Origin: a virus | Lineage: Duplodnaviria; Caudoviricetes | Strand: one strand, 5' to 3' | DNA length: 37,348 bases | Virus record (IMG/VR): IMGVR_UViG_3300025018_000065 | Span: 1 to 37,348 of that record | In this document: one piece after another, positions 971 to 36,868 of the stretch | How positions within the stretch are numbered: position 1 is the first letter of the stretch | Layout of the letters: each line of letters opens with the position of its first letter | Translations under genes and position numbers: made by a program | Notes under the pieces: model-generated | Told to the model about the DNA's origin: nothing | Databases searched by the model: none | Seen by the model: the letters and a program-made list of their open reading frames with translations, nothing else

Positions 971-1013
971 TGTGGCCCCGTTGGTATTCGTACCTCGGGG
1001 CCACAGTTACTTT
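971..1013 (+). terminator. UUCG-capped hairpin upstream of DNA polymerase (terminator or attenuator)
   Basis: TGTGGCCCCG/CGGGGCCACA stem, inner GGTA-TTCG-TACC, followed by GTTACTTT. Confidence 0.5.
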
Positions 1014-1025
1014 CGGGATTACAAC

Positions 1026-2993
1026 ATGCCAACAGAGATAGGCCACTTAGACTTCGAAACCTTCTCAGAGATAGACATCCGCAAGGTCGGGGCACACCGC
1101 TACGCACGGCACCCTTCCACGGAAGTGCTCATCGCCTGCTACCTACTACCCGGCATGGATGAGGTTGAGGTTTGGCTACCACGCCAGGAAGCCCCACCAG
1201 CGCGTCTAATGTCCTGGATTAGGCAAGGGGGTAAGGTAGGTGCGCACAACGCAGCCTTTGAGCGTTCTGTGTGGCGCTGGGCTCTTCGCCGCATGCACCC
1301 AAGCGTACCAGAGATCAAGGACAACCAGTGGGCCTGTACCGCAGCCAAGGCAGCAGCGTCCGGCCTGCCCCGTAGCTTAGAGAAGGCGCTGAAGGCTGCT
1401 GGCCTGGAGGTTGAGAAAGACCTGGAAGGTGGCAAGCTGATCAAGGTGTTCTGTGGGCCACGCAAGCCCACGAAGGCTGATGCACGCACACGGATACTCC
1501 CCGAGCAAGACCCACGGTTCCAGCGCTTCATCGAGTACTGCCAGCAAGATGTTCGTGGTGAGGTAGCTCTGGACGAAGCCCTGCCAGACCTGATACCTCG
1601 TCAGCGTCGCATGTTCCTGTTGGATATGGCTATGAACGACCGTGGTCTGCCGATTGACATACCGTTGGTGCGCAAGGCACTGAAGGTGGTCAAGTCGCTG
1701 GAAGAAGACATCGGCAGGCGTGTCAGTGCGCTGACTGGTGGCCTGAAGGCTACCCAAGTAGCCAAGATGATTGAGATGTTCGCTGAACGTGGGCTTGACA
1801 TTGCGAACATGCAGAAGAACACCATCGAGGAAGCGCTGAAGGACTCCAAGCTGGACGCTGGCACCCGTGCTCTGCTGGAGCTCCGTGTTGAGGCAGGCAA
1901 GGCCAGCACCAAGAAGCTCATCAGTATGATGGCCTGCGCCGACCCCGACGACTGGGTGGTGCAAGGGGGCTTCCTCTACCACGGTGCCCACACGGGTCGC
2001 TACGCTGGCCGACTGGTGCAGCCGCACAACTTCATCCGGGGCATGCTCAAGGACCACCAGCGCGACATGGTGTTCGCCCTGCTGGAGTACGAAGATGCAG
2101 AGTTGTTCACACTGCTGTACGACAAGCCGATTGACGTCATCAGCCAGTGCATGCGAGGCTTTATCCGTGCTCCCAAGGGTTACGAGCTGGCTGTCGTCGA
2201 CTACACGGCTATAGAGGCACGTATCCTGGCATGGGTAGCAGGCGAAGAAACCATCCTGGCTGCATACCGCAAGGGTCTGGACGTGTACAAGGTCATGGCG
2301 GTGACGCTGTTCCAGCTGAAGGACGTGTCTGAGGTATCTGACGAGCAGCGTCGCATCGCCAAGAACTTGGTGCTGGGTTGTGGGTATCAACTAGGTGGCG
2401 TGAAGTTCGTTGACTACTGTGCCAACGCTGGCGTGATCATCACCGAGGAGTTCGCCAAGAGCGCTGTGACCACGTACCGCAAGGGCGTCCCGGCCATCGT
2501 TGCAAGCTGGAAGACGGTGGAGAACCTTGTGGCTATGGCTATCAGGCATCCAGGCACCACGTACGAAGGACTCACGTGCAAGTTCTACATGAGCAGCCAT
2601 TGGCTCTGCATCGAGCTGCCCTCCGGCCGGAGCATCCGTTACCCGTATGCGCGTGCTGTGCCTGTAGAGCGTTGGGGCAAGCCAGCGTACGAGATCAGCT
2701 TCCGCACCGAGATCAAGGGTCAGTTCGTACGTGAGAAGACCTACGGTGGCAAGCTGATTGAGAACATCGTGCAGGGCATCGCCTTCGACGTGATGCAGGA
2801 AGGCATGTTGTCCGCTGAGACCAACGGCTACCCGGTCATCGGCACCGTACACGACGAAGCGCTGACACTACGTAAGGTCGGCACCAGCAACATCAAGGAA
2901 CTGGAAGCGTTGGTCTGCAACGTGCCAGCATGGAGCAAGGGCATGCCTCTGGCAGCGAAAGGGTTTATATGCGAACGGTACAAGAAAGACTAA
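1026..2993 (+). CDS. Family A DNA polymerase with 3'-5' exonuclease (APSE/SPO2-like)
   Basis: ExoI LDFET, AHNAAFER, YCQQDV; TGRYAG; motif A DYTAIEAR; motif B RRIAKNLVLGCGY; motif C TVHDE. Confidence 0.95.
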   Translation: MPTEIGHLDFETFSEIDIRKVGAHRYARHPSTEVLIACYLLPGMDEVEVWLPRQEAPPARLMSWIRQGGKVGAHNAAFERSVWRWALRRMHPSVPEIKDNQWACTAAKAAASGLPRSLEKALKAAGLEVEKDLEGGKLIKVFCGPRKPTKADARTRILPEQDPRFQRFIEYCQQDVRGEVALDEALPDLIPRQRRMFLLDMAMNDRGLPIDIPLVRKALKVVKSLEEDIGRRVSALTGGLKATQVAKMIEMFAERGLDIANMQKNTIEEALKDSKLDAGTRALLELRVEAGKASTKKLISMMACADPDDWVVQGGFLYHGAHTGRYAGRLVQPHNFIRGMLKDHQRDMVFALLEYEDAELFTLLYDKPIDVISQCMRGFIRAPKGYELAVVDYTAIEARILAWVAGEETILAAYRKGLDVYKVMAVTLFQLKDVSEVSDEQRRIAKNLVLGCGYQLGGVKFVDYCANAGVIITEEFAKSAVTTYRKGVPAIVASWKTVENLVAMAIRHPGTTYEGLTCKFYMSSHWLCIELPSGRSIRYPYARAVPVERWGKPAYEISFRTEIKGQFVREKTYGGKLIENIVQGIAFDVMQEGMLSAETNGYPVIGTVHDEALTLRKVGTSNIKELEALVCNVPAWSKGMPLAAKGFICERYKKD

Positions 2994-4879: not shown

Positions 4880-5710
4880 GTGAATGTAAAATCTTTGGTA
4901 GCCACAGACCACACGGGTGACTGGCGCAAGTTCGCTAACCAGATGTTCAAGCTCGAGGACGCTGACCCCGGATACATGCTGCTGGCACGCGCTGAGATGG
5001 ATGATGCCAAGAAGCTGCGCTACATCATGGCGTGGTGCACGTTCTACAATCCGGGTCTGGCAGCGCGTGCAAGCGACTTCCAGGGTGCCAAGTTCTACGA
5101 GTTCCTGCGATACGTGTACCCGCATGCCAAACGTGCTTCAGAGCGTCGGCACTTCCGTGGGCAGGCAGGGCTGAAGGCGATGGCGCAGTGGCAGAGCCTG
5201 TACCCCAAGCCAGAATCTATGGTGGAAGCCTGCTTCGCTTCGTCGTACATGGGCGTGCGCAAGAACATGAGCCACATGACGCAGATGGGCGACTACTTCT
5301 ACTGGAAGCTGGCCGACATCCAAGACACGGTGTTCCACAAGCCAGTGGACTTCACCGGGTGTGAGAAGTACATGCCGAAGGTGCCGAAGCAGGGTGCAGA
5401 CATGATCGGGGACATGGAGAACACCTTCGAGCTGGAGGCTATCATGGCCATCGTGACCAAGCACATCGGCAAGCTGGATCATCCGTTCACTGAACGCAAG
5501 CTGGCTCTGCAGGAAGCTGAGACTGTGTGCTGTGTGTTCAAGCAGCACGTTGTCGGCGATTACAAGTTCGGCTTCCGTAGTGCCAAGGCATATAAGCGCT
5601 TGAAGGGCATGGTTGCAGAGACCCCAACGGCACAAGTCCTGCTGGATGGCCTGTACGCTGGTGGCATCTGGGACGAAGAAGCACTGGTGGCGGTAGGAGA
5701 ACACCTGTGA
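4880..5710 (+). CDS. Amino acid:DNA transferase (aGPT-Pplase2-like, HhH-glycosylase fold)
   Basis: WCTFYNPGLA, RASERRHFRG, GDYFYWKLAD, QEAETVCC..K motifs as in M6/ViI-type transferases; adjacent to 5-hmdU kinase and hydroxymethylase. Confidence 0.8.
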   Translation: MNVKSLVATDHTGDWRKFANQMFKLEDADPGYMLLARAEMDDAKKLRYIMAWCTFYNPGLAARASDFQGAKFYEFLRYVYPHAKRASERRHFRGQAGLKAMAQWQSLYPKPESMVEACFASSYMGVRKNMSHMTQMGDYFYWKLADIQDTVFHKPVDFTGCEKYMPKVPKQGADMIGDMENTFELEAIMAIVTKHIGKLDHPFTERKLALQEAETVCCVFKQHVVGDYKFGFRSAKAYKRLKGMVAETPTAQVLLDGLYAGGIWDEEALVAVGEHL

Positions 5711-6285
5711 CCACGCTCGTCTACGTGCATGGCACCAACGGAAGTGGCAAGAGCACCCTCGCCCGTGCTGTGCTGGCTGCTGCTGGTGGCGCCTTTGACG
5801 TGTGCAAGCTGGCAGCTACACCCAAGGCTACATGGACACGCACTGGCGCAGAGGGCGTGGTCCTGGCTGGCAAGTACGGCACCGCTTGTGGAGGCGTGGA
5901 TGGCATGCAACCCTACGCAGCCCTGCACGATGTGCTCCAGTACAACGTGCAGGCGAAGTGCAGTGTGTTCGCTGAAGGTCTGGTCACTCCAGGCGTTGAC
6001 ACGTGCGCAACGTTCGCCAGCTACTTTGACCGTGCTGTGTTCATCCTGCTGGATACGCCTGAAACCGACTGTATCCTGAACGTGCTGAAGCGCCGGAAGG
6101 CCAAGGGCGCCACGAAGCCCTACGACCCCAAGAACCTGTACCGCAAGCTGGCCAGCGCACGTAGCTGGGCAACACGTCTTGAACGAGCAGGTCTTGAAGT
6201 ACACCGGGTACAATACCGTCAGGCGTACAACATGGCGCTGGAGCTGCTGGGTCTCCCCGAACCCAGCGTAGATGATCTTCTCTGA
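5707..6285 (+). CDS. P-loop 5-hydroxymethyluridine DNA kinase (5-HMUDK)
   Basis: VHGTNGSGKST Walker A, GKY..ACGGVD, FAEGL, LDTP..CI.NV..RR; genomic context. Confidence 0.82.
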   Translation: MTTLVYVHGTNGSGKSTLARAVLAAAGGAFDVCKLAATPKATWTRTGAEGVVLAGKYGTACGGVDGMQPYAALHDVLQYNVQAKCSVFAEGLVTPGVDTCATFASYFDRAVFILLDTPETDCILNVLKRRKAKGATKPYDPKNLYRKLASARSWATRLERAGLEVHRVQYRQAYNMALELLGLPEPSVDDLL

Positions 6286-6298
6286 AAGGCAACACAAC

Positions 6299-7348
6299 AT
6301 GAACGACAACCGTTATGGCGCTATCCTGCGCGTCAACAACGTCAACGAAGCCCTGCCTCTGGGCTTGACCCTGCTGCAAGAGCGTGGCGTGCTATCCGAG
6401 TCCCGTGGCTTGACTACCATGCGGGTTCCAGGCCCCGTGAGTACGGTGTACTCCAACCCACGTCAGCGCGTGCTATTCGATACCATCCGTGACGCTAACC
6501 CGTTCTTCCACTTGATCGAGTCCTTATGGATTCTGTCTGGCAGCAACCGGGTTGAGCTGCCCAAATACTTCTTAGACAACATCAGTCAGTTCAGTGACGA
6601 CGGTGTGGTGTTCCATGGCGCGTATGGGCACCGTCTGCGCAACGCCTTCGGCTTTGACCAGATTGAGCGTGCCTGTGATATGCTGAAGCGCAAGCCAGAC
6701 ACACGGCAAGTCGTGATGAGCATCTGGAACCCCATCATGGACCTGGACAAGTCGACCAAGGACATGCCCTGCAACGACATGGTCATGCTGGACATCGTGG
6801 AAGGCCAGCTCAACATGACGGTGTGCAACCGAAGCAACGACGCTGTGTGGGGTGCCTACGGTGCCAACGCAGTGCAGTTCAGCATCCTGCAAGAGTTCAT
6901 CGCGATCATGGTGGGTGCGCAGGTAGGCTACTACGTTCAGCAGTCCAACAACTACCACGCCTACACGGACAACCCGTTCTGGCTGAAGTTCCGCGAGGGG
7001 GAGTACGAGCATGGTCACGTTCACAACCCGTATTCCATGGATTCGGTACATCCGTATCCGCTGGCTGCTGACGCGGAAGATGCACTTATGCTGTACTACG
7101 ATTGTATTCGTATGGCGACGCAGGTAGAGCAGGGTGAAATCCTTGCCCACGTTGAGTACGTGTCTGAGTTCGGGCGTAACGTGGTTGCTCCCGTTGTGCG
7201 TGCGTACGATATGTATAAGGCGAAGCTCTACGCCAGCTCGTTGGCGATCATCCAAGAGCTGCCTGCTGAGGACTGGCGACTTGCTATGTTCGAGTGGGTG
7301 CAACGTCGTGCTCACCGTGCATCTGATAAGAAAGTGGTGCTAGCATGA
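6299..7348 (+). CDS. dUMP hydroxymethylase (thymidylate synthase fold)
   Basis: RDANPFFHLIESLWILSG, YGHRLR, DTRQVV, catalytic PCN, NRSND..WGAYGAN (Asn indicates dUMP specificity), NYHAY. Confidence 0.88.
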   Translation: MNDNRYGAILRVNNVNEALPLGLTLLQERGVLSESRGLTTMRVPGPVSTVYSNPRQRVLFDTIRDANPFFHLIESLWILSGSNRVELPKYFLDNISQFSDDGVVFHGAYGHRLRNAFGFDQIERACDMLKRKPDTRQVVMSIWNPIMDLDKSTKDMPCNDMVMLDIVEGQLNMTVCNRSNDAVWGAYGANAVQFSILQEFIAIMVGAQVGYYVQQSNNYHAYTDNPFWLKFREGEYEHGHVHNPYSMDSVHPYPLAADAEDALMLYYDCIRMATQVEQGEILAHVEYVSEFGRNVVAPVVRAYDMYKAKLYASSLAIIQELPAEDWRLAMFEWVQRRAHRASDKKVVLA

Positions 7349-7884
7349 AAGCCCTCGTAGAAGCCACGCTGTACCGTGATGCTGGTGCAGTGCAGCGCTA
7401 CCACGTCAAGCGCACGCACCGCAACCAGACAATCGCAGAACACACGTTCGGCATGCTGATGCTCATCAAGCAGGTCAACCCGTTGTGCACCAAGAACCTG
7501 ATGAACGCTGTGTTGCACCACGACCTCCCCGAGCTGTTCACTGGTGACATACCTGCCCCCATCAAACGGGTACACCCAGAGCTGGGACCGCTGATGGACA
7601 GCATCGAGGAAGACCTGAAGCCTCTGTACCAGGACTTCCAGATCACTGTGCCTGAAGCCATCCTGCTGAAGTGGGCTGACCGTATGGAGCTGGTGCTGTG
7701 GTGCCTGGAAGAAGTCCGTATGGGAAACGTGTACTGCCGCCCAACGGTAGCGCGTGGCCTTGGCTGGATACTGATGGCAAAGATGCCTGATAACGCACAG
7801 GAGTTGACTACCGAAGTGGTGGCCGACGCCTGGACCCTTGGAATCACGCCAGCAACAGGCGCAGAACTGGAGATGAACGCATGA
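7345..7884 (+). CDS. HD-domain (YfbR/DatZ-like) deoxynucleotide phosphohydrolase
   Basis: RYH, AEH, HHDLPE..TGDIPAPIK, KWADRME. Confidence 0.85.
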   Translation: MKALVEATLYRDAGAVQRYHVKRTHRNQTIAEHTFGMLMLIKQVNPLCTKNLMNAVLHHDLPELFTGDIPAPIKRVHPELGPLMDSIEEDLKPLYQDFQITVPEAILLKWADRMELVLWCLEEVRMGNVYCRPTVARGLGWILMAKMPDNAQELTTEVVADAWTLGITPATGAELEMNA

Positions 7885-8321
7885 GCACCGCGAACAACAC
7901 CCAAGTGGGGGGCACCCACTACAAGAACCCGTTCCAGCACTGGGACCTCTGCCACGAGTTGGACCTTGGCTACTTCGAAGGCCAGATCAGCAAGTACATC
8001 ACACGGCACCGCTTCAAGAAGGGCCTGGAGGACGCTGAGAAGGCGCTGCACTTCTGCTCTAAGCTGATTGAGCTGGCACGTGACGGAGGTCGTCAGCCTC
8101 GGCACCGTGTGGTCAGCTTCGCACGCATGACGCAGTACGCTGAAGCGAACAATCTGTTGCCTATCGAGTACGCTTGCATCAACTCCGTGTGTAACTGGCA
8201 GTTCGTCGAGGACCTGACTATGTTGCAGGCACGCATTGAGCGCCTGATCACTGAGTCGTACCCACTGGACGACGGTAGTGAGCCGGGTGCTGGCTACGTT
8301 GACCAAGGCAAGGACATTTGA
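7881..8321 (+). CDS. DUF3310 (T7 gp1.7-like) nucleotide kinase domain protein
   Basis: QVGGTHY, YFEGQISKYITR, KKGLEDAEKA. Confidence 0.75.
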   Translation: MSTANNTQVGGTHYKNPFQHWDLCHELDLGYFEGQISKYITRHRFKKGLEDAEKALHFCSKLIELARDGGRQPRHRVVSFARMTQYAEANNLLPIEYACINSVCNWQFVEDLTMLQARIERLITESYPLDDGSEPGAGYVDQGKDI

Positions 8322-8375
8322 ATACCCCTACGTATTGATAGGGCTTTAACGAAAGGTCTTGGTGGAGTTCTTGAA
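8318..8375 (+). promoter_or_regulatory. Putative phage promoter element (copy of 32478-32535)
   Basis: 45/58 identity to 32478-32535 by hand alignment; core GAAAGGTCTTG also at 8784. Confidence 0.6.
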
Positions 8376-8437: not shown

Positions 8438-8782
8438 ATGTCCAAGACCACCACTCCCGTTGTAGCAGCAACACCAGTAGCCACTTCACACAAGCTGGCA
8501 CCCACCATCACCAGCAAGGCGAAAGCCAAGTCCGTCGCAGCAGCAGACGGTCGCAAGCGCCCAATCGTGGCCATCAACGAAGACGGTAAGCTGGTCGTAT
8601 GCTGCCGTCGTACCGCCAAGAAGAACGGCTGGGATATCCAAGAAGTGCTGTACGAACGTGCCAAGACCGTGAAGGCTGAAGCACCCGTTGTGCCAGCACC
8701 AGAACCCAAGCATGAACGTCGTGCTGCTGCGCCTCGTGCCAAGAAGGTTGATGCTGCTGTTGATGAAATCCTGGGCAGCTAA
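8438..8782 (+). CDS. Basic hypothetical protein, paralog of 32583..32771
   Basis: GAAAGGA RBS; DGKLVVCCRRTAKKNGW motif. Confidence 0.75.
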   Translation: MSKTTTPVVAATPVATSHKLAPTITSKAKAKSVAAADGRKRPIVAINEDGKLVVCCRRTAKKNGWDIQEVLYERAKTVKAEAPVVPAPEPKHERRAAAPRAKKVDAAVDEILGS

Positions 8783-8848
8783 CGAAAGGTCTTGCGAGCC
8801 TCCTCGGAGGTTCGTGACAACACTTATATCAACAACCCGGAGCACCCC

Positions 8849-16183: not shown

Positions 16184-16912
16184 TCAACCGTAGAACGATG
16201 TACCGTCTGTCAACTGTACGCTGTTGCTCTGAACAGGCCGAGCAGCGTATGGGTTCGTGCCTTGATTCATGTACTGGCTGTTCATAGCCCAATTACCCAA
16301 CGTGTTCGCTGCACCACTCATCGCGTTACCCTGCCCGACGTACCCACTGGCACGAGCGTTACCAGCACCGATCTGGTTTTCTGCGATGCTGGACGCCACT
16401 TGCGCACCTTGCGCACCAACTTGATTCGTAGCGGTCTGACCTGTACCAGCGATAGACGACAGACGGTTGAACCGTGCTGTGCGGTCTGCGTTGAATCGGT
16501 TGTAGGCGTTCTGGTATTCGCCAGAAGCGTAGTCCTGCCCGTAGCGTTGAGCACCCTTGATGGCAGCGCCACTGAGCGCGCCACCACGAGCAGCAGCACT
16601 GGCGTCAAGCCCTCGCTGGCCTTGCTGCATACGGAAGTCGTAGCCAGGATCTTTGGTGAAATCAGATAAGGTGAAATCACGGTTGAAATCACCGCCTGCT
16701 GATGTGCCTGCACTGAGTTGTCCCAAGGCAGAAACACCAGCGTCGCGCCACGGTTTCTGGTCCTCTCGATTTTGCTCGAACATCTTTAGCTGCGTAGCGT
16801 TAGCTTCTGCCGAAGATTGAACCTGTGCGTCAGCAGCGCTGCCAGCAGCCTTGCTACTCATCACCCCGCCGATGACTGCAGACCCTACGATAGCTGTTGC
16901 AATTCCACTCAT
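16184..16912 (-). CDS. DNA ejection protein, P22 gp7-like
   Basis: Hydrophobic N-terminus, DPGYDFR..QG, AAARGG.LSG, Ala/Gly/Gln-rich. Confidence 0.82.
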   Translation of the reverse strand: MSGIATAIVGSAVIGGVMSSKAAGSAADAQVQSSAEANATQLKMFEQNREDQKPWRDAGVSALGQLSAGTSAGGDFNRDFTLSDFTKDPGYDFRMQQGQRGLDASAAARGGALSGAAIKGAQRYGQDYASGEYQNAYNRFNADRTARFNRLSSIAGTGQTATNQVGAQGAQVASSIAENQIGAGNARASGYVGQGNAMSGAANTLGNWAMNSQYMNQGTNPYAARPVQSNSVQLTDGTSFYG

Positions 16913-17790
16913 GTTAGTACTCCTGTAGTTGAGCAGGTTATTCCGGATAGGCGCAGAGCCTGCCTGTAGTCTATTGTCACCTCATCTCCGTCTCGACCAC
17001 CGTTGCAGCCCGATATGTCCTTGAGAGCTACGAGGCTGACATCACCACTACCATGGAGCCGCATATATGCGTTCGGTGTTTTTGAGTGGTTTGTGTACCG
17101 ACCCAACGGGGTACGCAGTCCTTCGAGTCGTGCTGGTCCGATTACCTCATGGGCAGTTACGTTGGCAGTGGCGAACACGCCAGTACCGTGTATTGGGGAC
17201 TGGCCGAGTTTGAACTTCTGGGCACCCTCAGGCATAGGACGCTGGTCGCTGGTGTTCTCGGACTGTGCCTGAACTGTTTCTGCCGAGAACCCTGACCTGA
17301 ACAGTACATCAGCAAAGTCCACACGGTCTGCCTCATGCAATACGTATTCCGACTTCATACGCATCTCGTTCGCATCAACCCATGTCGGGGATTTATCCAG
17401 GAACATGCTTTCCAGTGCCTGCACATCACGTTCGGTCGTTGCGTAGATGTTCTGCCACACCACATCCTCCAGGATATACCCCATCTTGCGACCGGGTTTG
17501 CCTGTGAACATCAGGGGGGCCACTAGCTCCTGGGTAGAACCATCTTCTTGTAGCATGAGCACCCGGCCTTTAAGCATGATATTCACGTGCTCCTTGGTCT
17601 GGCGGTGCCCGATAGCGAACAGGCCAGCGCTCATAGACACTTCCCGTATGTATATGCCTGGACCAAAGTGGTGGACGACAGGGCAGTACGCCTGCTCTTG
17701 GGCCAACATGGTTTCTTCAGCGTGGTCGATACCTTGTGCAGTCAGACCACGCATGGCATCACCGAGTATGATAGATACTTCGTTCACCAT
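16909..17790 (-). CDS. Cupin-like plus SET-domain methyltransferase fusion
   Basis: N-terminal HHFGPGIYIRE..GHRQ..EH beta-barrel pattern; C-terminal SPIHGTGVFAT, RYTNHSKTPN, GDEVTIDY SET motifs. Confidence 0.8.
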   Translation of the reverse strand: MVNEVSIILGDAMRGLTAQGIDHAEETMLAQEQAYCPVVHHFGPGIYIREVSMSAGLFAIGHRQTKEHVNIMLKGRVLMLQEDGSTQELVAPLMFTGKPGRKMGYILEDVVWQNIYATTERDVQALESMFLDKSPTWVDANEMRMKSEYVLHEADRVDFADVLFRSGFSAETVQAQSENTSDQRPMPEGAQKFKLGQSPIHGTGVFATANVTAHEVIGPARLEGLRTPLGRYTNHSKTPNAYMRLHGSGDVSLVALKDISGCNGGRDGDEVTIDYRQALRLSGITCSTTGVLT

Positions 17791-24873: not shown

Positions 24874-27056
24874 TGCGCGATCTCCGGCCCGGATTCAGCC
24901 ACTCCGGTAGGGGCACCCTGTTGCGCCTGATCTGCAGGGGGGTATCCTGCAGGGCGAGTAATAGATTGAGACGCATTGTTATCGTCCTCGGCAAGGTCTG
25001 CTGAGACATCAGCGACCAGTGCGGGAGGGGGCTGCATCTTGACGAGTAGCATCTGGATCATGCCCTTGAGCTCTTCGACGTCTTCCTTGCTCTCAGCGTT
25101 GATCTTGGCGATGGTAATCTGGGTCTCAGACTGCAGACGCGCCTTGTCCATGCCCGTGTTGGCATCAGACAGCTCCTTGCCCATCTGCTGCATCTGCTGG
25201 TCCATCTGTGCCAGCATGGGGCCGACCTGATCCTTGGGCATGGGGCCTTTCGGCGTGTCCACCATGTTGGCATCAGTGCCCTCACCACCTTCGTCATCAC
25301 GGAGCTCGGGAGGCATGGTCTTCTCGATACGGTCAGCAATTTCCTCAGACATAGGCCAATCCATAGAGCGCACGATCTTGTCACCTGCAACGTCCATCAG
25401 CTTCGGCCAGCTCTTGGCTGTTTGGATCATGCCATCCACTGCTTCCTGACGCAGCGTATCGTAGCTCGGACCCACGCTGATGGTCACTCCGTAGTTGGCT
25501 ACGCTGGACATATCGTTCATCAGCTTCTCAACTGCCTGCCCTGTCTCGTCTTGCTCGACTGTGGGCTTGTTCACCTCCACCGACTTGACCTTGCCATCCA
25601 TACCCATGATCTGCATGGTGCGAGTACCGTCGTACACCTTGGGCCACATGTTCAGGATGCAACGACCCACGTGACGCAGTGTGGTGTTCAGGTTGTCGAT
25701 GTAGTGGTAGTTGGCTGTTTCGCCCTGACGGTCACGGCGACCGATAGCCACGCCACTGGTTTCGTTAGACCGGGCACCCAGAGATGCATCGAACAGGCCA
25801 GTGGTGCTCTTGATGTCGTCGCTGGCGTGCGCAGCCATTGCCAGTACACCAGTAGGTACGTCTGCCATGTGTTGACGCTGGGGAGGGGGTGCAAGCTGGC
25901 CAGCGAGGGTCTTGGGCTTGTACTCCAAGTACGGGAACGAACGCACGTTGGCTTCACGCCACTTGGACTCATGGCCCTCGAACTGGCCTTCTGCACCGAT
26001 GAACGGGGCCTTGGGGATGAGGCCTACCTGTTCCGTGGCGCTGGTCATCCAGTAGTTGTACATGCGAGCAGGGTCTTTCGCGTTGCGGATCATGCCACTG
26101 CGATACACCCTACCATCCAGGTCAATCTCATCACCCACCACTGGGAACACCGGAATCCACTTGCATGGGATGTCAGCACGCTCCAGCACTTCGGTAGCGC
26201 TGAGCTTGAACCACTGCACAGTAGGACGCAAGCTCTTGCGTGTCTTGACTACAGTAACGCCTTCAGGCATCTCGATGAGCTTGTCCTTGTACCCACTTTC
26301 ACCGTTGCTGAGCAGCACCGTGTCCACCTTCTCGTAGTGGATGCGGTAGTACTCGGCCACACGCACTTCGGTAGCGGTGATCCAGTCGTTGGAGCGGTCG
26401 CCTAGGCCACGCACCACACCGAAGTCACAGGGGTCGCAGTCAGGGTGCTCCAGCACGAACTCGGTACGTGCCTGCTTCGAGGACAGGATACACCACTGCT
26501 GGTCGGAGCCATCAATCTCAACGCAGCCGGGGTCCATGTACACGGTGAACGGGTTCCGTATGCGCTTGAACTGAATCTCTTGGTCGAAGCTGCTGGGGTC
26601 CACATAGTCAGTGACCAAGCGGAAGTATCCGAAGCCGATGGCTGCGGCACTGTTCACAGCAGTGTCCTTGGCTACGTCGGCGTTGCTGGCGTACTCGATG
26701 TGGCGTATGCCACCCTGCACCACTTCAGCCACCTTCATGTCCTCGTCATTCGTGGGGTGTACCTTGATGCTCGGCACGTTCTGTCGCTGGCTGTTGGTCA
26801 CCTGATGCAGTGATGTAGGCAGCTTGTTGATGGTCAGGCAGGGTCGGCCATCCAGCGCACGCTGCTGCTTGATGCGTTCATCCCACTGGTCGCCCTTCAG
26901 GAAGGCAAGGTCGTCAAGACCGTTGGTGCGGTTCTCGCCATCTGCTGCCATGCTGATGCGCATGCGGTCCATGCACTCGGCGATGATGGCTGTATCATCT
27001 TTCGTGTCGGCCTGCTTATCGTGGTCGACTTGGGTCTGGTCTGGGGTGCTGCTCAT
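24870..27056 (-). CDS. Portal protein (P22 gp1-like)
   Basis: GDQW, RPCLTIN, G.IRHIE, KDPARMYNYW, SNETSGVAI, GPSYDTLRQE; start 27056 by ATGA overlap. Confidence 0.93.
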   Translation of the reverse strand: MSSTPDQTQVDHDKQADTKDDTAIIAECMDRMRISMAADGENRTNGLDDLAFLKGDQWDERIKQQRALDGRPCLTINKLPTSLHQVTNSQRQNVPSIKVHPTNDEDMKVAEVVQGGIRHIEYASNADVAKDTAVNSAAAIGFGYFRLVTDYVDPSSFDQEIQFKRIRNPFTVYMDPGCVEIDGSDQQWCILSSKQARTEFVLEHPDCDPCDFGVVRGLGDRSNDWITATEVRVAEYYRIHYEKVDTVLLSNGESGYKDKLIEMPEGVTVVKTRKSLRPTVQWFKLSATEVLERADIPCKWIPVFPVVGDEIDLDGRVYRSGMIRNAKDPARMYNYWMTSATEQVGLIPKAPFIGAEGQFEGHESKWREANVRSFPYLEYKPKTLAGQLAPPPQRQHMADVPTGVLAMAAHASDDIKSTTGLFDASLGARSNETSGVAIGRRDRQGETANYHYIDNLNTTLRHVGRCILNMWPKVYDGTRTMQIMGMDGKVKSVEVNKPTVEQDETGQAVEKLMNDMSSVANYGVTISVGPSYDTLRQEAVDGMIQTAKSWPKLMDVAGDKIVRSMDWPMSEEIADRIEKTMPPELRDDEGGEGTDANMVDTPKGPMPKDQVGPMLAQMDQQMQQMGKELSDANTGMDKARLQSETQITIAKINAESKEDVEELKGMIQMLLVKMQPPPALVADVSADLAEDDNNASQSITRPAGYPPADQAQQGAPTGVAESGPEIAQ

Positions 27057-27445
27057 TTGGCGTGTTCCTTGTAGAGGGCTTCGGTAAGTGGTTTGAGTTC
27101 CATCATCTTGGGCGTGCCGTTGACCATGCGTGCCATCAGCACCATGGGCGACTCCTGGATGGTGTGGAAGCCGAAGGACCGGGCGTACCATTCTTCGAGC
27201 TGCTGTTTGCTCAGGTTCATGTTGTCGCCCCAAGGCTGAGGGGTCAGCACCAGCACGAGGCCAGCAGCGTCAGCCTCACGGCAGACCTTGTGCATCAGCG
27301 TGGTAGCGTACCCCTTGCCTTGTTCGGCGAAGGTGGTCTCGACGTTCACGATCTCCCGTGTGGTCTTCTGGAGTGCAGGGGGCAGCGCTGGACACTGGCG
27401 GATACGCAGTGTGGCAGCACCAACGGAACGGGGTCCGGTCTTCAT
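27053..27445 (-). CDS. GNAT-family acetyltransferase
   Basis: Motif A V.T..EQGKGYATTLM, WYARSFGF; AAGGAG RBS before ATG 27445 (alternative start 27463). Confidence 0.75.
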   Translation of the reverse strand: MKTGPRSVGAATLRIRQCPALPPALQKTTREIVNVETTFAEQGKGYATTLMHKVCREADAAGLVLVLTPQPWGDNMNLSKQQLEEWYARSFGFHTIQESPMVLMARMVNGTPKMMELKPLTEALYKEHAK

Positions 27446-27462
27446 ATATTTCTCCTTGTTCA

Positions 27463-28821
27463 TCAGGTCATCCATCCGCCACCGCTTGTGGCAATACCAG
27501 CATTCTCGCGCTCTTCCATGCGCTCGCGGATACGGGGCTCTTCTGTAGCCACCACACCTATACGGAAGGCGTCGGAGCCATGAGAGGCCCAGTTATGCAG
27601 AGGGCCTAGGCTTATGCCCCGCTTCTTATCAACCTTCTCCTGGTACTGCTTCAGGGCGTCCAGGCCAGTAGCGGTCTTGCGCTTGTCGAACCACATGCGG
27701 TTCATGGCCATACGCACTGCATCGATACCATCCTTCACAGGGATGTTGGGGGCTACGCTGAACTCGATGCCCAGCTTGGAGGCAGTCTCGATGCGTGACT
27801 TGCCCGTACCTATCTCACGATGCATGATGTCGTGAGGCCCCCAATGAGTACCGTACAGGTAGTTCCTGTCGGTGAGCACTCGCGCATAGTGGTCCAGGCC
27901 GAAGCCTGATGCTTCGTAGTAGTCGATAACCCGTATCTCCTTGCCCACGAGCTGCACGAACCAGATGACCATGTTGTCGCTGATACCCAAGTCCCACCAC
28001 GTGTCCACCTTCACGCTCTTGTCGTAGGGCACGCTGGTGATACGACCATCAAACTCAGCGTCAGCGATCTCCTTGGCATAGTAGGCACCAGTGATGGCAG
28101 CGTCGAAGTCACACTCGAACTCCTGCAGGTACTCGTTGGTAGGCATCAACTTACGTAGGCGAGCCAGCTCCGTCTCGGGGAGGATGCCTGTCTGACTGGC
28201 CTTCAGCACCTGCACGAACCACTCGGGCGCTACGCTGAGCAACGTGTTGGCGTCGTTGTCGGCCAGAGCTCGCTTGTACGTGGCACCCAGCAGGTTCCCC
28301 CATCCCTTCGGAGTACCGCTGATGTCCAGCCATCCTTCTCGGTCAGCCAGAGCTGGGATGATCACGCTGGTCAGCACGCTGGGTGCAATGTCCTGGCCTT
28401 CGTCTGCCACCACTCCATCGAAGTACAGTCCACGCATGCGGTCAGCGTTCTCGGCACCGTACAGGCGGATGACTGCTCCGTTGTGGGGCATGGTGATAGA
28501 CAGCTCAGACTCGTTCTTCTTCGCCTTGTATGGCCCCCTCACGTCCAGGATGGCTGCTGAGTAGTGCTTCAGGTAGTTCCAGGCGATATCCTTGGCTTGC
28601 ACGAAGTAGGGGGCTAGGTAGCCGAAGCGTGGGTCAGGCTTCTCGCAGGTAGCAGCAGCCCTCACGAGCTTGTTGATACGTGCTACTGTCTTGCCTGCAC
28701 GACGGTGAGCCACGCTCATGGCGAAGCGTTCTGGTGCCTTGTGGTATGGCAGGAAGGCAGCGCGAGGCTTGTAAGGGATGGTAACGACCTTCAGATCGGT
28801 CGCAGGCTGCTTTGCGGTCAT
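27463..28821 (-). CDS. terL: Terminase large subunit
   Basis: AHRRAGKT, RGLYFDGVVADE, SGTPKG, QEFECDF, WDLG, SHGSDAFR. Confidence 0.95.
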   Translation of the reverse strand: MTAKQPATDLKVVTIPYKPRAAFLPYHKAPERFAMSVAHRRAGKTVARINKLVRAAATCEKPDPRFGYLAPYFVQAKDIAWNYLKHYSAAILDVRGPYKAKKNESELSITMPHNGAVIRLYGAENADRMRGLYFDGVVADEGQDIAPSVLTSVIIPALADREGWLDISGTPKGWGNLLGATYKRALADNDANTLLSVAPEWFVQVLKASQTGILPETELARLRKLMPTNEYLQEFECDFDAAITGAYYAKEIADAEFDGRITSVPYDKSVKVDTWWDLGISDNMVIWFVQLVGKEIRVIDYYEASGFGLDHYARVLTDRNYLYGTHWGPHDIMHREIGTGKSRIETASKLGIEFSVAPNIPVKDGIDAVRMAMNRMWFDKRKTATGLDALKQYQEKVDKKRGISLGPLHNWASHGSDAFRIGVVATEEPRIRERMEERENAGIATSGGGWMT

Positions 28822-32477: not shown

Positions 32478-32535
32478 TTGAATACCCTACCGCGTTGAAG
32501 GGTCTTTTCAGAAAGGTCTTGGAAGAGTTCTTGAA
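32478..32535 (+). promoter_or_regulatory. Putative early promoter element (copy of 8318-8375)
   Basis: TTGAATACCC...GAAAGGTCTTGG..GAGTTCTTGAA upstream of the first plus-strand gene. Confidence 0.6.
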
Positions 32536-32582: not shown

Positions 32583-32771
32583 ATGTCAACATCTACCAAG
32601 CTCGTCCCCACCTTCGTGTCCTCTAACATCGAAGCTGCTGCAGAAGCCATGTTCAATGCTAACCGTGCTCGCCCTTGCGCCTGCTACACACAAGACGGTC
32701 AGGCTGTTGTGTGCAGCGCTCGCACTGCTCGCAAAAACGGCTGGACCATCGTGGCTCGCACCTGGAAGTAA
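32583..32771 (+). CDS. Small early protein, paralog of 8438..8782
   Basis: AAGGA RBS; DGQAVVCSARTARKNGW. Confidence 0.75.
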   Translation: MSTSTKLVPTFVSSNIEAAAEAMFNANRARPCACYTQDGQAVVCSARTARKNGWTIVARTWK

Positions 32772-35059: not shown

Positions 35060-35722
35060 ATGAAAACGTATATCGGAACGAAAGTGTTACGTGCCACACC
35101 CATGAACCGCCTCGAGTACAACGCATTCCGTGGGTGGACTCTGCCCGCTGATGAGAACGGTGCCGACGAAGGCTATCTGGTCGAGTACACGGATGGTGGC
35201 AAGCCCAACACCACAACTCACGCTGGCTACGTGTCCTGGTCACCGAAGGAACAGTTCGACCGTGCCTATGTTGAGTGCGCTGATTCGAGCGCTCTTGCCC
35301 TTGAGCTGGCCTCCTCCGAGAGTACCATCCTTGGTGCTATGGCGAAGGACATGGACTACGCTTGGGCATGGCACTGCAACATCGCTATGGCTGCGTTCGA
35401 CGCTGGTTGCCCTCACGACGTGGCGAACGAAGGCGCAGCACGATTCATGCAACTGCTGGCAGGCGTGGACACTCGCAAGCATCCTGCCTTCGAGCAGACG
35501 CAACGTCCTGACCCAACGGGTACGCCAGAGTCTGACCCAACGGGTACGCCAGAGTCTGACCCAACGGGTACGCCAGAGTCTGACGAGCAGGCGGTGATCA
35601 AGGAGTTCGCCTTCGAGCAGGGTCTGAACGGCACTACCGCATACGACATCGAGAAGCTGGTGGCTGCTGCCCCTGCTCCGACCGTGTTGGTTGTCGGCGA
35701 AGAAACTGGCCTGACAGACTGA
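35060..35722 (+). CDS. Two-domain phage protein (YIGTK...EGYLVEY...SWSPK domain plus WHCNIAM domain)
   Basis: GGAG RBS; N-terminal domain recalled as often fused to DUF2829/Gp49-type domains. Confidence 0.7.
   Translation: MKTYIGTKVLRATPMNRLEYNAFRGWTLPADENGADEGYLVEYTDGGKPNTTTHAGYVSWSPKEQFDRAYVECADSSALALELASSESTILGAMAKDMDYAWAWHCNIAMAAFDAGCPHDVANEGAARFMQLLAGVDTRKHPAFEQTQRPDPTGTPESDPTGTPESDPTGTPESDEQAVIKEFAFEQGLNGTTAYDIEKLVAAAPAPTVLVVGEETGLTD
35508..35584 (+). repeat. 24-bp tandem repeat x3.2 (DPTGTPES)
   Basis: CTGACCCAACGGGTACGCCAGAGT three times exactly, then CTGAC. Confidence 0.95.
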
Positions 35723-35723
35723 T

Positions 35724-36470
35724 ATGAAGCACGCCATACTCAGCCCGAGCGCGTCTCACCGCTGGTTGGTGTGCCCCGGTAGCGTGGAAGCCAACGTGGG
35801 TAAACCATGGGAGCAGAGCGTCTTCGCACTGGAGGGCACCAGTGCGCACGCGCTCCTCGAGGTATGCCTCCGTCTGGGTGCAGCCCCTGAAACGTTCTTC
35901 GGTGACACGCTGGAGCCAGGACACATGCCTGTAGACGAGGGCATGACTGACGGTGTTGGCTACGCCTTGGACTACGTAGAGGCGTACACCGCGAACAACC
36001 CCAAGACCAAGGTGCTCATTGAGCATACCGTGGCCTTCGGGGCAGCTATCGGAGCCACTGACGAAGAAGGCTTCGGTACGAGCGACATCATCCTGGACAA
36101 CTTCCCTGCTGAGGTCGTAGTCATCGACTACAAGCATGGTATCGGCCACAGCGTGTCGGTCAAGGACAACAGCCAGCTCCTGCTCTACGCAGTGGGTATG
36201 CGTGCTCAGCGTGGTAGATACCAACGGTATCGCAAGGTGGTGGTTCAGCCACGACTCGCCAAGCGCAAGCCAGTGCAAGAAGCCCCTGCCATGACCGACG
36301 TCAAGATGATGCAGTGGGTAGACAAGGTGGTGCGCCCAGTGGTACCCATAGCGCTCAGCAAGGGTGCTCCCCGTGTAGCTGGTGCGCACTGCCACTACTG
36401 CGCAGCGAACGGTAACTGCCAAGCTCAGTACGAGCTGGTGATGAAGAAGGCAAAGGAGGAGTTCGAATGA
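35724..36470 (+). CDS. DUF2800 PD-(D/E)xK / Cas4-like nuclease, N-terminal part
   Basis: HAILSPSASHRWLVCPGS, EGTSAH, FGTSD, IDYKHG, QLLLYA, HCHYC..C. Confidence 0.88.
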   Translation: MKHAILSPSASHRWLVCPGSVEANVGKPWEQSVFALEGTSAHALLEVCLRLGAAPETFFGDTLEPGHMPVDEGMTDGVGYALDYVEAYTANNPKTKVLIEHTVAFGAAIGATDEEGFGTSDIILDNFPAEVVVIDYKHGIGHSVSVKDNSQLLLYAVGMRAQRGRYQRYRKVVVQPRLAKRKPVQEAPAMTDVKMMQWVDKVVRPVVPIALSKGAPRVAGAHCHYCAANGNCQAQYELVMKKAKEEFE

Positions 36471-36868
36471 AACCCGGTTCCCTCACACCCAAGCAGATAG
36501 CCAAGCTCCTGGACACGCTGGAGATGATGGACAAGATCGGTGAGGCAGTGCGTGCCCATGCCATCGAGCTGGTGCATGCTGGCACCGTCATCCCCGGCTA
36601 CGAGGCCAGCTTCACAGCAGCACGACGCATGTGGAAGGACGAAGAAGCAGCTAACACCACGCTGGAAGAGCTGGGTCTTGCCAAGCGCGAACGGTACACG
36701 GTGGAGCTCCTTAGCCCTGCCCAAGCTGAGAAGCTGCTACGTAGCAAGAAGCTCTGGCCCAAGAAGGTGCGTGGCAGCGCTGGCGACGACTTCACCGACC
36801 CACTGAAACCCGTTGTCGGCTACACAGAGACCAAGCCAAGCATCCGCAAAGCCAGCAGCGAATCCTGA
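36467..36868 (+). CDS. DUF2800 C-terminal part as a separate gene
   Basis: LT..QIA.LL, A..G..IPGY, R.WKDE, LLSPAQAEK; AAGGAGG RBS and ATGA overlap. Confidence 0.75.
   Translation: MKPGSLTPKQIAKLLDTLEMMDKIGEAVRAHAIELVHAGTVIPGYEASFTAARRMWKDEEAANTTLEELGLAKRERYTVELLSPAQAEKLLRSKKLWPKKVRGSAGDDFTDPLKPVVGYTETKPSIRKASSES

Follow-up and report, generated by a model that had tools for sequence, protein, structure and literature searches.

Genomic context of the gene block

The stretch analysed here (IMG/VR record IMGVR_UViG_3300025018_000065, positions 1–37,348; hereafter the window) is the complete genome of a podophage of 37 kb, classed in its record as a 100% complete virus, with a 120-nt direct repeat at its termini and encoding P22-type coat and portal proteins and a family A DNA polymerase. 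Five consecutive plus-strand open reading frames (ORFs) within it (4880–8321; Table 1) probably constitute an intact, stripped-down block for thymidine hypermodification, in which thymine (T) would be replaced by 5-hydroxymethyluracil, a part of which would be phosphorylated and its phosphate swapped for a small anionic metabolite predicted to be neither glycine, serine nor a diamine. An earlier note, made from the sequence alone, had described five closely spaced, mostly overlapping genes at this site, and the ORFs were found at the same places, with 4-nt overlaps (GTGA/ATGA) at three of the four junctions. At the fourth junction, the start at 6299 leaves a gap of 13 nt between the kinase and thymidylate synthase (TS)-fold genes, and an alternative in-frame ATG at 6272 would give an overlap. 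The identities assigned in that note to the five products (transferase, P-loop kinase, TS-fold enzyme, HD protein and DUF3310 protein) are supported. The designation as an operon is less apt: the gene for an SNF2 helicase ends 45 nt upstream of the block, and neither a terminator nor a promoter-like site was found in this 45-nt gap, so that the block is probably not an operon of its own but the distal end of a replication transcript. In the RNA data, no raw-read run containing the stretch was found, all RNA rows having small shares.

The block is 87.7% identical in nucleotide sequence, across 98% of its length, to that of Rhodoferax phage P26218 (NC_029061), the gp14–gp18 of which are direct orthologues of the five products. 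P26218 is a cultured lytic freshwater podophage, and DNA modification is absent from the main text of its genome paper (PMC4657236). The dN/dS values between the two phages, in gene order, are 0.23, 0.27, 0.09, 0.07, and 0.14, showing purifying selection on all five genes (dN/dS 0.07–0.27). We further scored 46 related loci drawn from collections of phage, viral, and metagenome sequences. The window's own record, two duplicates, and shorter re-fetches had been removed beforehand, and several pairs of nearly identical loci are left in the set. The five-gene set is complete in 32 of these loci, and the remaining 14 contigs end ≤1.9 kb from the transferase gene. The transferase clade is common, with 260 protein clusters found at E ≤ 0.001.

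Table 1. Positions of the block genes and of related features (window coordinates unless a locus is named)
Feature	Position	Strand	Basis or remark
Amino acid:DNA transferase (aGPT-Pplase2/ADDT), predicted, 276 aa	4880..5710	+	PF18724, E 7.7e-42
5-hydroxymethyldeoxyuridine (5-hmdU) DNA kinase (5-HMUDK), predicted, P-loop, 192 aa	5707..6285	+	29% over 184 aa to PaMx11 gp49, E 4e-16
Likely dUMP hydroxymethylase, TS fold, 349 aa	6299..7348	+	Thymidylat_synt, E 1e-18; D155, C158, N159, D181, N190
HD phosphohydrolase, DatZ/YfbR-like, 179 aa	7345..7884	+	YfbR-like, E 1.1e-14; YfbR-like/HD_3 Pfam
DUF3310 protein, 146 aa	7881..8321	+	35% to M6 gp61; PHROG 236 'nucleotide kinase', E 1.5e-13
Family A DNA polymerase	972..2993	+	PF00476, PHROG 17; on the strand and in the gene run of the block; outside the coordinates of the earlier note
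Intergenic repeat motif	8318..8375	+	58-nt repeat, 78% to 32478–32535; 3' edge of the block
Mislabelled 5-HMUDKs	L001:10603-11181, L003:12257-12820, L004:6986-7555		'Terminase small subunit' in RefSeq/PHROG 800
Divergent aGPT-Pplase1 of clade genome G004	L067:3351-4229	-	Between small terminase and primase genes

Transferase and its donor pocket

The transferase matches PF18724 with 144 bits, against a curated cut-off of 26.2, and is 25% identical to both M6 gp51 and PaMx11 gp46 (20–25% to the characterised transferases overall). Its structure model (predicted local distance difference test, 88) resembles the PaMx11 gp46 structures 8Z2M and 8Z2N at template-modelling (TM) scores of 0.78–0.80, these being its sole structural matches under E 0.001; as modelled, the protein shares the all-helical gp46/PUGT fold. 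Catalytic C218, the metal ligands E214/T215, and the pocket residues D29, E88, K143, and Y228 are kept, with catalytic roles taken from the available text of PMC8989533 and PMC13458397; the four pocket residues correspond to D24, E96, K159, and Y257 of the glycine transferases. The pocket was surveyed in the 120 homologues listed of the 260 clusters found, in all of which C218, E214, T215, and D29 are invariant. The residue alignment reproduces the published numbering (PMC13458397) for M6 and SH-Ab 15599.

The residues at the donor end of the pocket are different. K248, D262, and E265 of the glycine-type enzymes are replaced by V219, R233, and K236 (K248V, D262R, and E265K relative to M6), and V/I219, R233, and K236 occur in 120/120 of the homologues listed (61–96% identity). 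According to the accessible part of PMC13458397, K248 together with D262 binds the glycine carboxylate in YuA-type enzymes. The Cys–Lys pair is kept in M6, PaMx11, and three further cultured phages (Pam3, RHph_TM26, and LK3). The diamine transferases (putT/dapT) of PhiW-14 (Delftia) and SH-Ab 15599 (Acinetobacter) share Y139 and K143 with the window enzyme, whereas their acidic pocket (G227, H230, D238, and D243) corresponds to a basic one here (V219, Q222, Y228, and R233). In ViI gp247, W288, K291, and D304, following the catalytic Cys, correspond to V219, Q222, and R233; ViI otherwise aligns poorly. Taken together, the aligned donor pocket differs from the pockets of all five characterised enzymes in the comparison. 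Since a diamine enzyme was switched to glycine by two pocket substitutions (PMC13458397), these positions are considered to set the donor, and the pocket of the window differs at positions shown to switch donors.

Because the pocket is basic, having gained positive charge, an anionic donor is inferred, and the residues suggest a small anionic metabolite, predicted to be neither glycine, serine nor a diamine. The best single guess is aspartate or glutamate, held tentatively and ranked ahead of glycine held by R233; all other anions, in total, are given a chance not far short of even. The glycine or serine donor proposed in the earlier note is disfavoured, as K248/D262 are Val/Arg here, the ViI serine enzyme also differs at these positions, and its own residues are absent as well.

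A competing reading is that the donor is still glycine, with R233 replacing the K248–D262 pair; the final base would then be N-glycinyl-thymidine, which M6 and PaMx11 form as an intermediate. D29, E88, K143, and Y228 match four of six residues of the YuA glycine pocket, and the K-to-V plus D-to-R change resembles a compensatory swap. It is nevertheless rather unlikely, given that K248 and D262 differ in every homologue listed, that all five cultured phages named above retain Cys–Lys, and that the extra basic K236 in place of E265 and the room gained through Val point to a donor that is larger or more anionic. Several points do weigh against a change of donor: at 20–25% identity, the pocket equivalences depend on the alignment; a charge swap in which R233 substitutes for K248 could retain glycine; and the PaMx11 structure, in the accessible text of PMC11472151, places the leaving phosphate at the D262/E265 region.

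Kinase

Searches with profile hidden Markov models, suggested in the earlier note as a check, agreed with it for PF18724, which is above its cut-off, and for Thymidylat_synt; the best Pfam match of the kinase, HMUDK_HMUD1 (PF18748), reaches 24.1 bits and falls under its cut-off of 27, which counts against the assignment. PaMx11 gp49, a kinase of verified activity (PMC8989533, Table 1), also falls below this cut-off (18.1 bits). A profile built from 15 related kinases of the clade detected PaMx11 gp49 (E 4e-32), M6 gp54 (3e-20), ViI_061c (4e-16; equated with gp67 from its 'orf00067' annotation), and SP10 gp186N (2e-15), with the PhiW-14 dNMP kinase at 0.72 and the ViI dNMP kinase unlisted. By BLASTP, M6 gp54 matches the kinase at the P-loop alone. 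In these profile comparisons, the kinase groups with the 5-hmdU DNA kinases and not with the dNMP kinases. Separately, the label 'terminase small subunit' (RefSeq and PHROG 800) is attached to 5-HMUDKs, including verified M6 gp54 and PaMx11 gp49 (loci in Table 1).

TS-fold enzyme

The TS-fold protein is 40% identical to M6 gp58 and, over 213 aa, 40% identical to the SPO1 dUMP hydroxymethylase. D155 is located three residues before the catalytic C158, at the position of Escherichia coli ThyA L143 (L143D), while N190 and D181 occupy the positions of ThyA N177 and D169. In the available text of PMC6400193 and PMC13326640, an acidic residue at L143 is the hydroxymethylase signature, N177 confers dUMP specificity, and D169N marks 5-hydroxy-dCMP synthases; L143D, N177, and D169 are common to the SPO1, SP10, M6, and PaMx11 enzymes. 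BLASTP scores are highest for the hydroxymethylases of M6 (234 bits), SPO1 (152), SP10 (149), ViI (137), and PhiW-14 (114), with the PaMx11 enzyme also within this range, followed by two other phage TS homologues (about 88), E. coli ThyA (54), and T4 gp42 (40). Among entries of the Protein Data Bank (PDB), the CMP hydroxymethylase MilA matches best; it carries Asp at the position of N190. Less favourably, the backbone of the TS tree is unresolved, with long branches, and the hydroxymethylases form no supported single clade; residues and scores were used for the assignment for this reason. The signature residues present indicate that the enzyme is likely a dUMP hydroxymethylase. Synthesis of dTMP or hm-dCMP, which the earlier note had named as incompatible with its proposal, is unlikely in view of Asp155 at L143 and Asn190 at N177.

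The same evidence bears on the possibility that these genes serve ordinary nucleotide metabolism (a thymidylate synthase, a dNMP kinase, and a nucleotidase) beside an inactive transferase, the DNA being canonical or containing 5-hmdU only. In RefSeq, the genes of P26218 are annotated as 'thymidylate synthase' and 'terminase small subunit', and the kinase score under the Pfam cut-off would fit. The TS-fold protein, however, scores 61 in the ThyA equivalog profile against a cut-off of 327, carries L143D, has Asn for H147, and does not conserve W80/W83; the catalytic residues of the transferase are invariant in the homologues listed, with dN/dS of 0.23; and the verified M6 and PaMx11 kinases bear the identical 'terminase small subunit' mislabel. 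We regard this explanation as highly improbable.

HD protein, DUF3310 protein, and polymerase

The HD protein is 39% identical to M6 gp59 and, among solved structures, is nearest to DatZ (E 2.9e-6) and YfbR (E 1.3e-5). DatZ acts in nucleotide pool control, and by analogy the HD enzyme likely removes dTTP or dTMP. The DUF3310 protein scores 18.9 bits in Pfam, below the cut-off of 24, which speaks against its assignment, and M6 gp61 is below it as well (21.9 bits). The clade profile of this protein gave a weak match to T7 gp1.7 (E 1.5e-4; best of 50 shuffles, 0.0067), and DUF3310 is tied to the nucleotide kinase activity of T7 gp1.7 in the available text of PMC10700055. The protein may thus be a candidate 5-hmdUMP kinase, a stand-in for the missing dNMP kinase. 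The family A polymerase would incorporate 5-hmdUTP.

Comparison with characterised systems and the absence of aGPT-Pplase1

The 5-NedU block of M6/YuA consists of gp51 (AADT), gp52 (pyridoxal phosphate (PLP) enzyme), gp53 (radical S-adenosylmethionine (SAM) enzyme), gp54 (5-HMUDK), gp55 (aGPT-Pplase1), gp58, gp59 (HD), and gp61. Five of these have homologues in the same order in the window (25%, P-loop/profile, 40%, 39%, and 35%, respectively), with the catalytic Cys/Glu/Thr shared, whereas the PLP, radical SAM, Pplase1, and Nmad5 genes are absent from the window; M6/YuA is a 59-kb siphophage, in contrast to the 37-kb P22-type podophage of the window. PaMx11 (5-AcNmdU) provides the best structural match of the transferase and the closest verified kinase, and has the order transferase–kinase–hydroxymethylase–HD–gp53 in common with the window, which differs in its donor pocket and lacks the FAD lyase, gp48-type acetyltransferase, Pplase1, and dCMP deaminase. 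PhiW-14 and SH-Ab 15599 resemble the window in combining a kinase with a transferase and leaving the adduct untailored; unlike it, they are large myophages with dispersed genes and carry Pplase1. SPO1, in which 5-hmdU fully replaces T, has the dUMP hydroxymethylase homologue and, like the window, no Pplase1, but it has neither ADDT nor hypermodification.

A six-frame search of the window, validated by three positive controls that were all recovered, revealed no PLP enzyme, radical SAM enzyme, FAD lyase, gp48-type acetyltransferase or Nmad5, so that the tailoring enzymes of M6 (5-NedU), ViI (5-NeOmdU), and PaMx11 (PLP decarboxylase, radical SAM isomerase, FAD lyase, and acetyltransferase) were not found. 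A GNAT-like gene (27053–27475, minus strand) was considered as a tailoring acetyltransferase and rejected, being under the Pfam cut-off and unrelated to PaMx11 gp48; it lies between the large terminase and portal genes and is conserved among the clade genomes, and the cassette-less EBPR podovirus 1 encodes a homologue of 34% identity. The same search found no dCMP deaminase, dUTPase or classical dNMP kinase in the window, and the earlier description of the cassette as self-contained is therefore overstated. In the available text of PMC8989533, a kinase and a clade-2 transferase suffice for hypermodification.

aGPT-Pplase1 (PF18723) was not found in the window by Pfam, and with a nine-sequence profile searched against 961 window segments the best hit (E 0.17) was the transferase itself. 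It is present in all six characterised hypermodifying phages (M6, PaMx11, ViI, PhiW-14, SP10, and SH-Ab 15599), and is missing from eight of nine complete clade genomes (the window, W01, W02, G001, and G003–G007, with G004 as the exception). P26218 lacks it as well. The virions of SP10, PhiW-14, M6, and ViI contain T rather than 5-hmdU (PMC8989533), and the route from 5-hmdU to T was called unknown in 2018 (PMC5889632); in the literature covered, from which subscription papers are mostly missing, neither a later answer nor an assigned role for aGPT-Pplase1 was found. Since aGPT-Pplase1 is absent, positions without the adduct would stay 5-hmdU instead of becoming T, and we lean towards this outcome. 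The earlier statement that the DNA contains 5-hmdU plus a hypermodified T was thus mistaken in its analogy with M6/ViI, whose virions hold T, and may still hold for the window.

This reading is weakened in several respects. The proposed link between Pplase1 and T is a correlation across seven genomes; Pplase1 is carried by the complete clade genome G004, at a distant site, and by the fragment G008, beside the block; and clade 1 (Pplase1) may itself be a transferase, because SP10 has Pplase1 and no ADDT. All six long distant loci (transferase identity, 38–44%) also carry Pplase1 adjoining the block. The G004 transferase is 70% identical to that of the window, making the two a natural Pplase1 plus/minus pair. 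The ORF beside the G004 Pplase1 is presumably endonuclease-V-like, and L002 has an annotated endonuclease V at the matching site. A sequence that might have been a vestige of Pplase1, upstream of the L037 transferase gene, was discarded as not significant (E 0.19).

Alternatively, substitution may be partial, dTTP and 5-hmdUTP both being incorporated, so that the virion would hold T together with a share of 5-hmdU and of hypermodified T; T would then come from the host pool with Pplase1 unnecessary. This possibility, which bears on positions lacking the modification and would fit either donor, strikes us as doubtful. That no dCMP deaminase, dUTPase or dNMP kinase of classical type was found in the window agrees with it; sequencing and PCR of P26218 DNA were routine (PMC4657236), but amplifiability does not discriminate. 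Against it, HD and DUF3310 proteins accompany the hydroxymethylase in 32/32 complete blocks, in M6, and in PaMx11, as expected for pool control, and M6 is described as replacing T fully at replication (PMC8989533).

Proposed pathway

The identities of the transferase, kinase, and TS-fold enzyme make the pathway dUMP → 5-hmdU in DNA → 5-phosphomethyl-dU → substituted thymine likely, in support of the route given in the earlier note. First, the TS-fold enzyme, in which the signature residues are seen, likely converts dUMP to 5-hmdUMP. Depletion of dTTP or dTMP would fall to the HD enzyme, and 5-hmdUTP might come from DUF3310 or from host kinases, for both of which the indications are weak; the phage polymerase would then incorporate 5-hmdUTP. 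The kinase likely forms 5-phosphomethyl-dU, and TG/TC would be its probable sites, as they are among relatives. Finally, the transferase likely expels the phosphate by means of C218 and a metal on E214/T215, adding the donor amine through the exocyclic methylene. Without an encoded tailoring enzyme, the first adduct would stay unchanged as the end product. Relatives are documented to resist restriction and to prefer TG/TC (available text of PMC6449724 and PMC13458397), and by analogy the thymine modification likely has an anti-restriction role.

Sequence composition

Observed/expected counts of 6-bp palindromes in the window are 9/39 (0.23) for GC-only and 327/497 (0.66) for T-containing sites. 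T-containing sites are still depleted, the clade genomes G006 and G007 exhibit little of the contrast, and GC-only sites are also depleted in two of five control phages (MW202496, 0.35 vs 0.44; MW202674, 0.16 vs 0.59). Restriction-site avoidance was therefore rejected as a proxy for modification, not being diagnostic. The TG rho is 1.32 in the window, 1.24–1.39 in the clade, and 1.07–1.20 in five cassette-less controls; it is 1.36 in PhiW-14 pieces, 1.01 in an M6 piece, and 1.19 in an SH-Ab 15599 piece. The TG excess survives synonymous shuffling (z 14) and, because it is paired with CG loss, merely hints at TG-targeted modification. In the window, the odds ratio of TG/CA is also high (1.32), those of CG and TT/AA are low, and observed vs expected counts are 1 vs 24 for CAGCTG, 0 vs 12 for AAGCTT, and 79 vs 163 for GATC.

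Other features of the window and related loci

At the 3' edge of the block, the core of the intergenic repeat, GAAAGGTCTTG, is exact at 8351, 8784, and 32511, with four matches at ≤1 mismatch vs 0.52 expected; the copies of the motif lie at 8318–8375, about 8780–8820, and 32478–32535. Two copies precede paralogous small basic genes (8438–8782 and 32583–32771; 55% over 29 aa). The 8318–8375 motif is likely a promoter or operator, of early type, of the next small gene.

In 11 of the 46 related loci, a gene of ~200 aa, absent from the window, is located on the upstream side of the block, adjoining the transferase gene or, in L013, ahead of the kinase gene (e.g. L038:9433-10032, L020:1154-1780, and L022:1319-1909). 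In a low-confidence Atlas model, its product looks similar to GT-A glycosyltransferases (TM about 0.6), and one cluster is 44% TAGT, all under the naming bar; it could glycosylate leftover 5-hmdU, or could be degenerate.

Elsewhere in the window, a 293-aa gene among the virion genes (16909–17790, minus strand; 60–85% identical in clade genomes) has a weak C-terminal SET domain (E 1.5e-5) and an N-terminus that we take to be cupin-like. DUF2800 (PD-(D/E)XK nuclease-like) is divided over two adjacent ORFs (35724–36868, plus strand; profile positions 1–248 and 250–359), and P26218 also has two ORFs there. Three exact copies of a repeat with a 24-nt period (TGTPESDP) are present at 35508–35584, inside a 220-aa ORF (35060–35722).

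Implications

The literature yielded no description of this transferase cluster, most subscription papers and figure-only supplements being outside its coverage. None of the full-text matches for P26218 concerns DNA modification by title, and no analysis of its bases was found there. 'P26218' and 'Rhodoferax' are absent from the supplement text of PMC13458397 and PMC8989533, the figures of which (network; Fig. S6B logos) may include the cluster. Many transferase clusters are noted as uncharacterised in the available text of the 2026 diaminopropane paper (PMC13458397), so that another one is to be expected.

While the pathway is known, the donor pocket differs here and the product is predicted to be different, possibly an undescribed DNA base. 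More specifically, it is conceivable, with some scepticism on our part, that P26218-like podophages carry an undescribed negatively charged thymine (e.g. N-aspartyl- or N-glutamyl-thymine formed by a clade-2 transferase) on a T-free 5-hmdU background. As there are no tailoring genes, the virion base would report the transferase donor directly, and a cultured host–phage pair is available for P26218, whose DNA bears both on the identity of the donor and on how 5-hmdU becomes T. If such a base on a T-free 5-hmdU background is real, P26218-like podophages would be a natural knockout implicating aGPT-Pplase1 in the conversion of 5-hmdU to T in M6, ViI, and PhiW-14.

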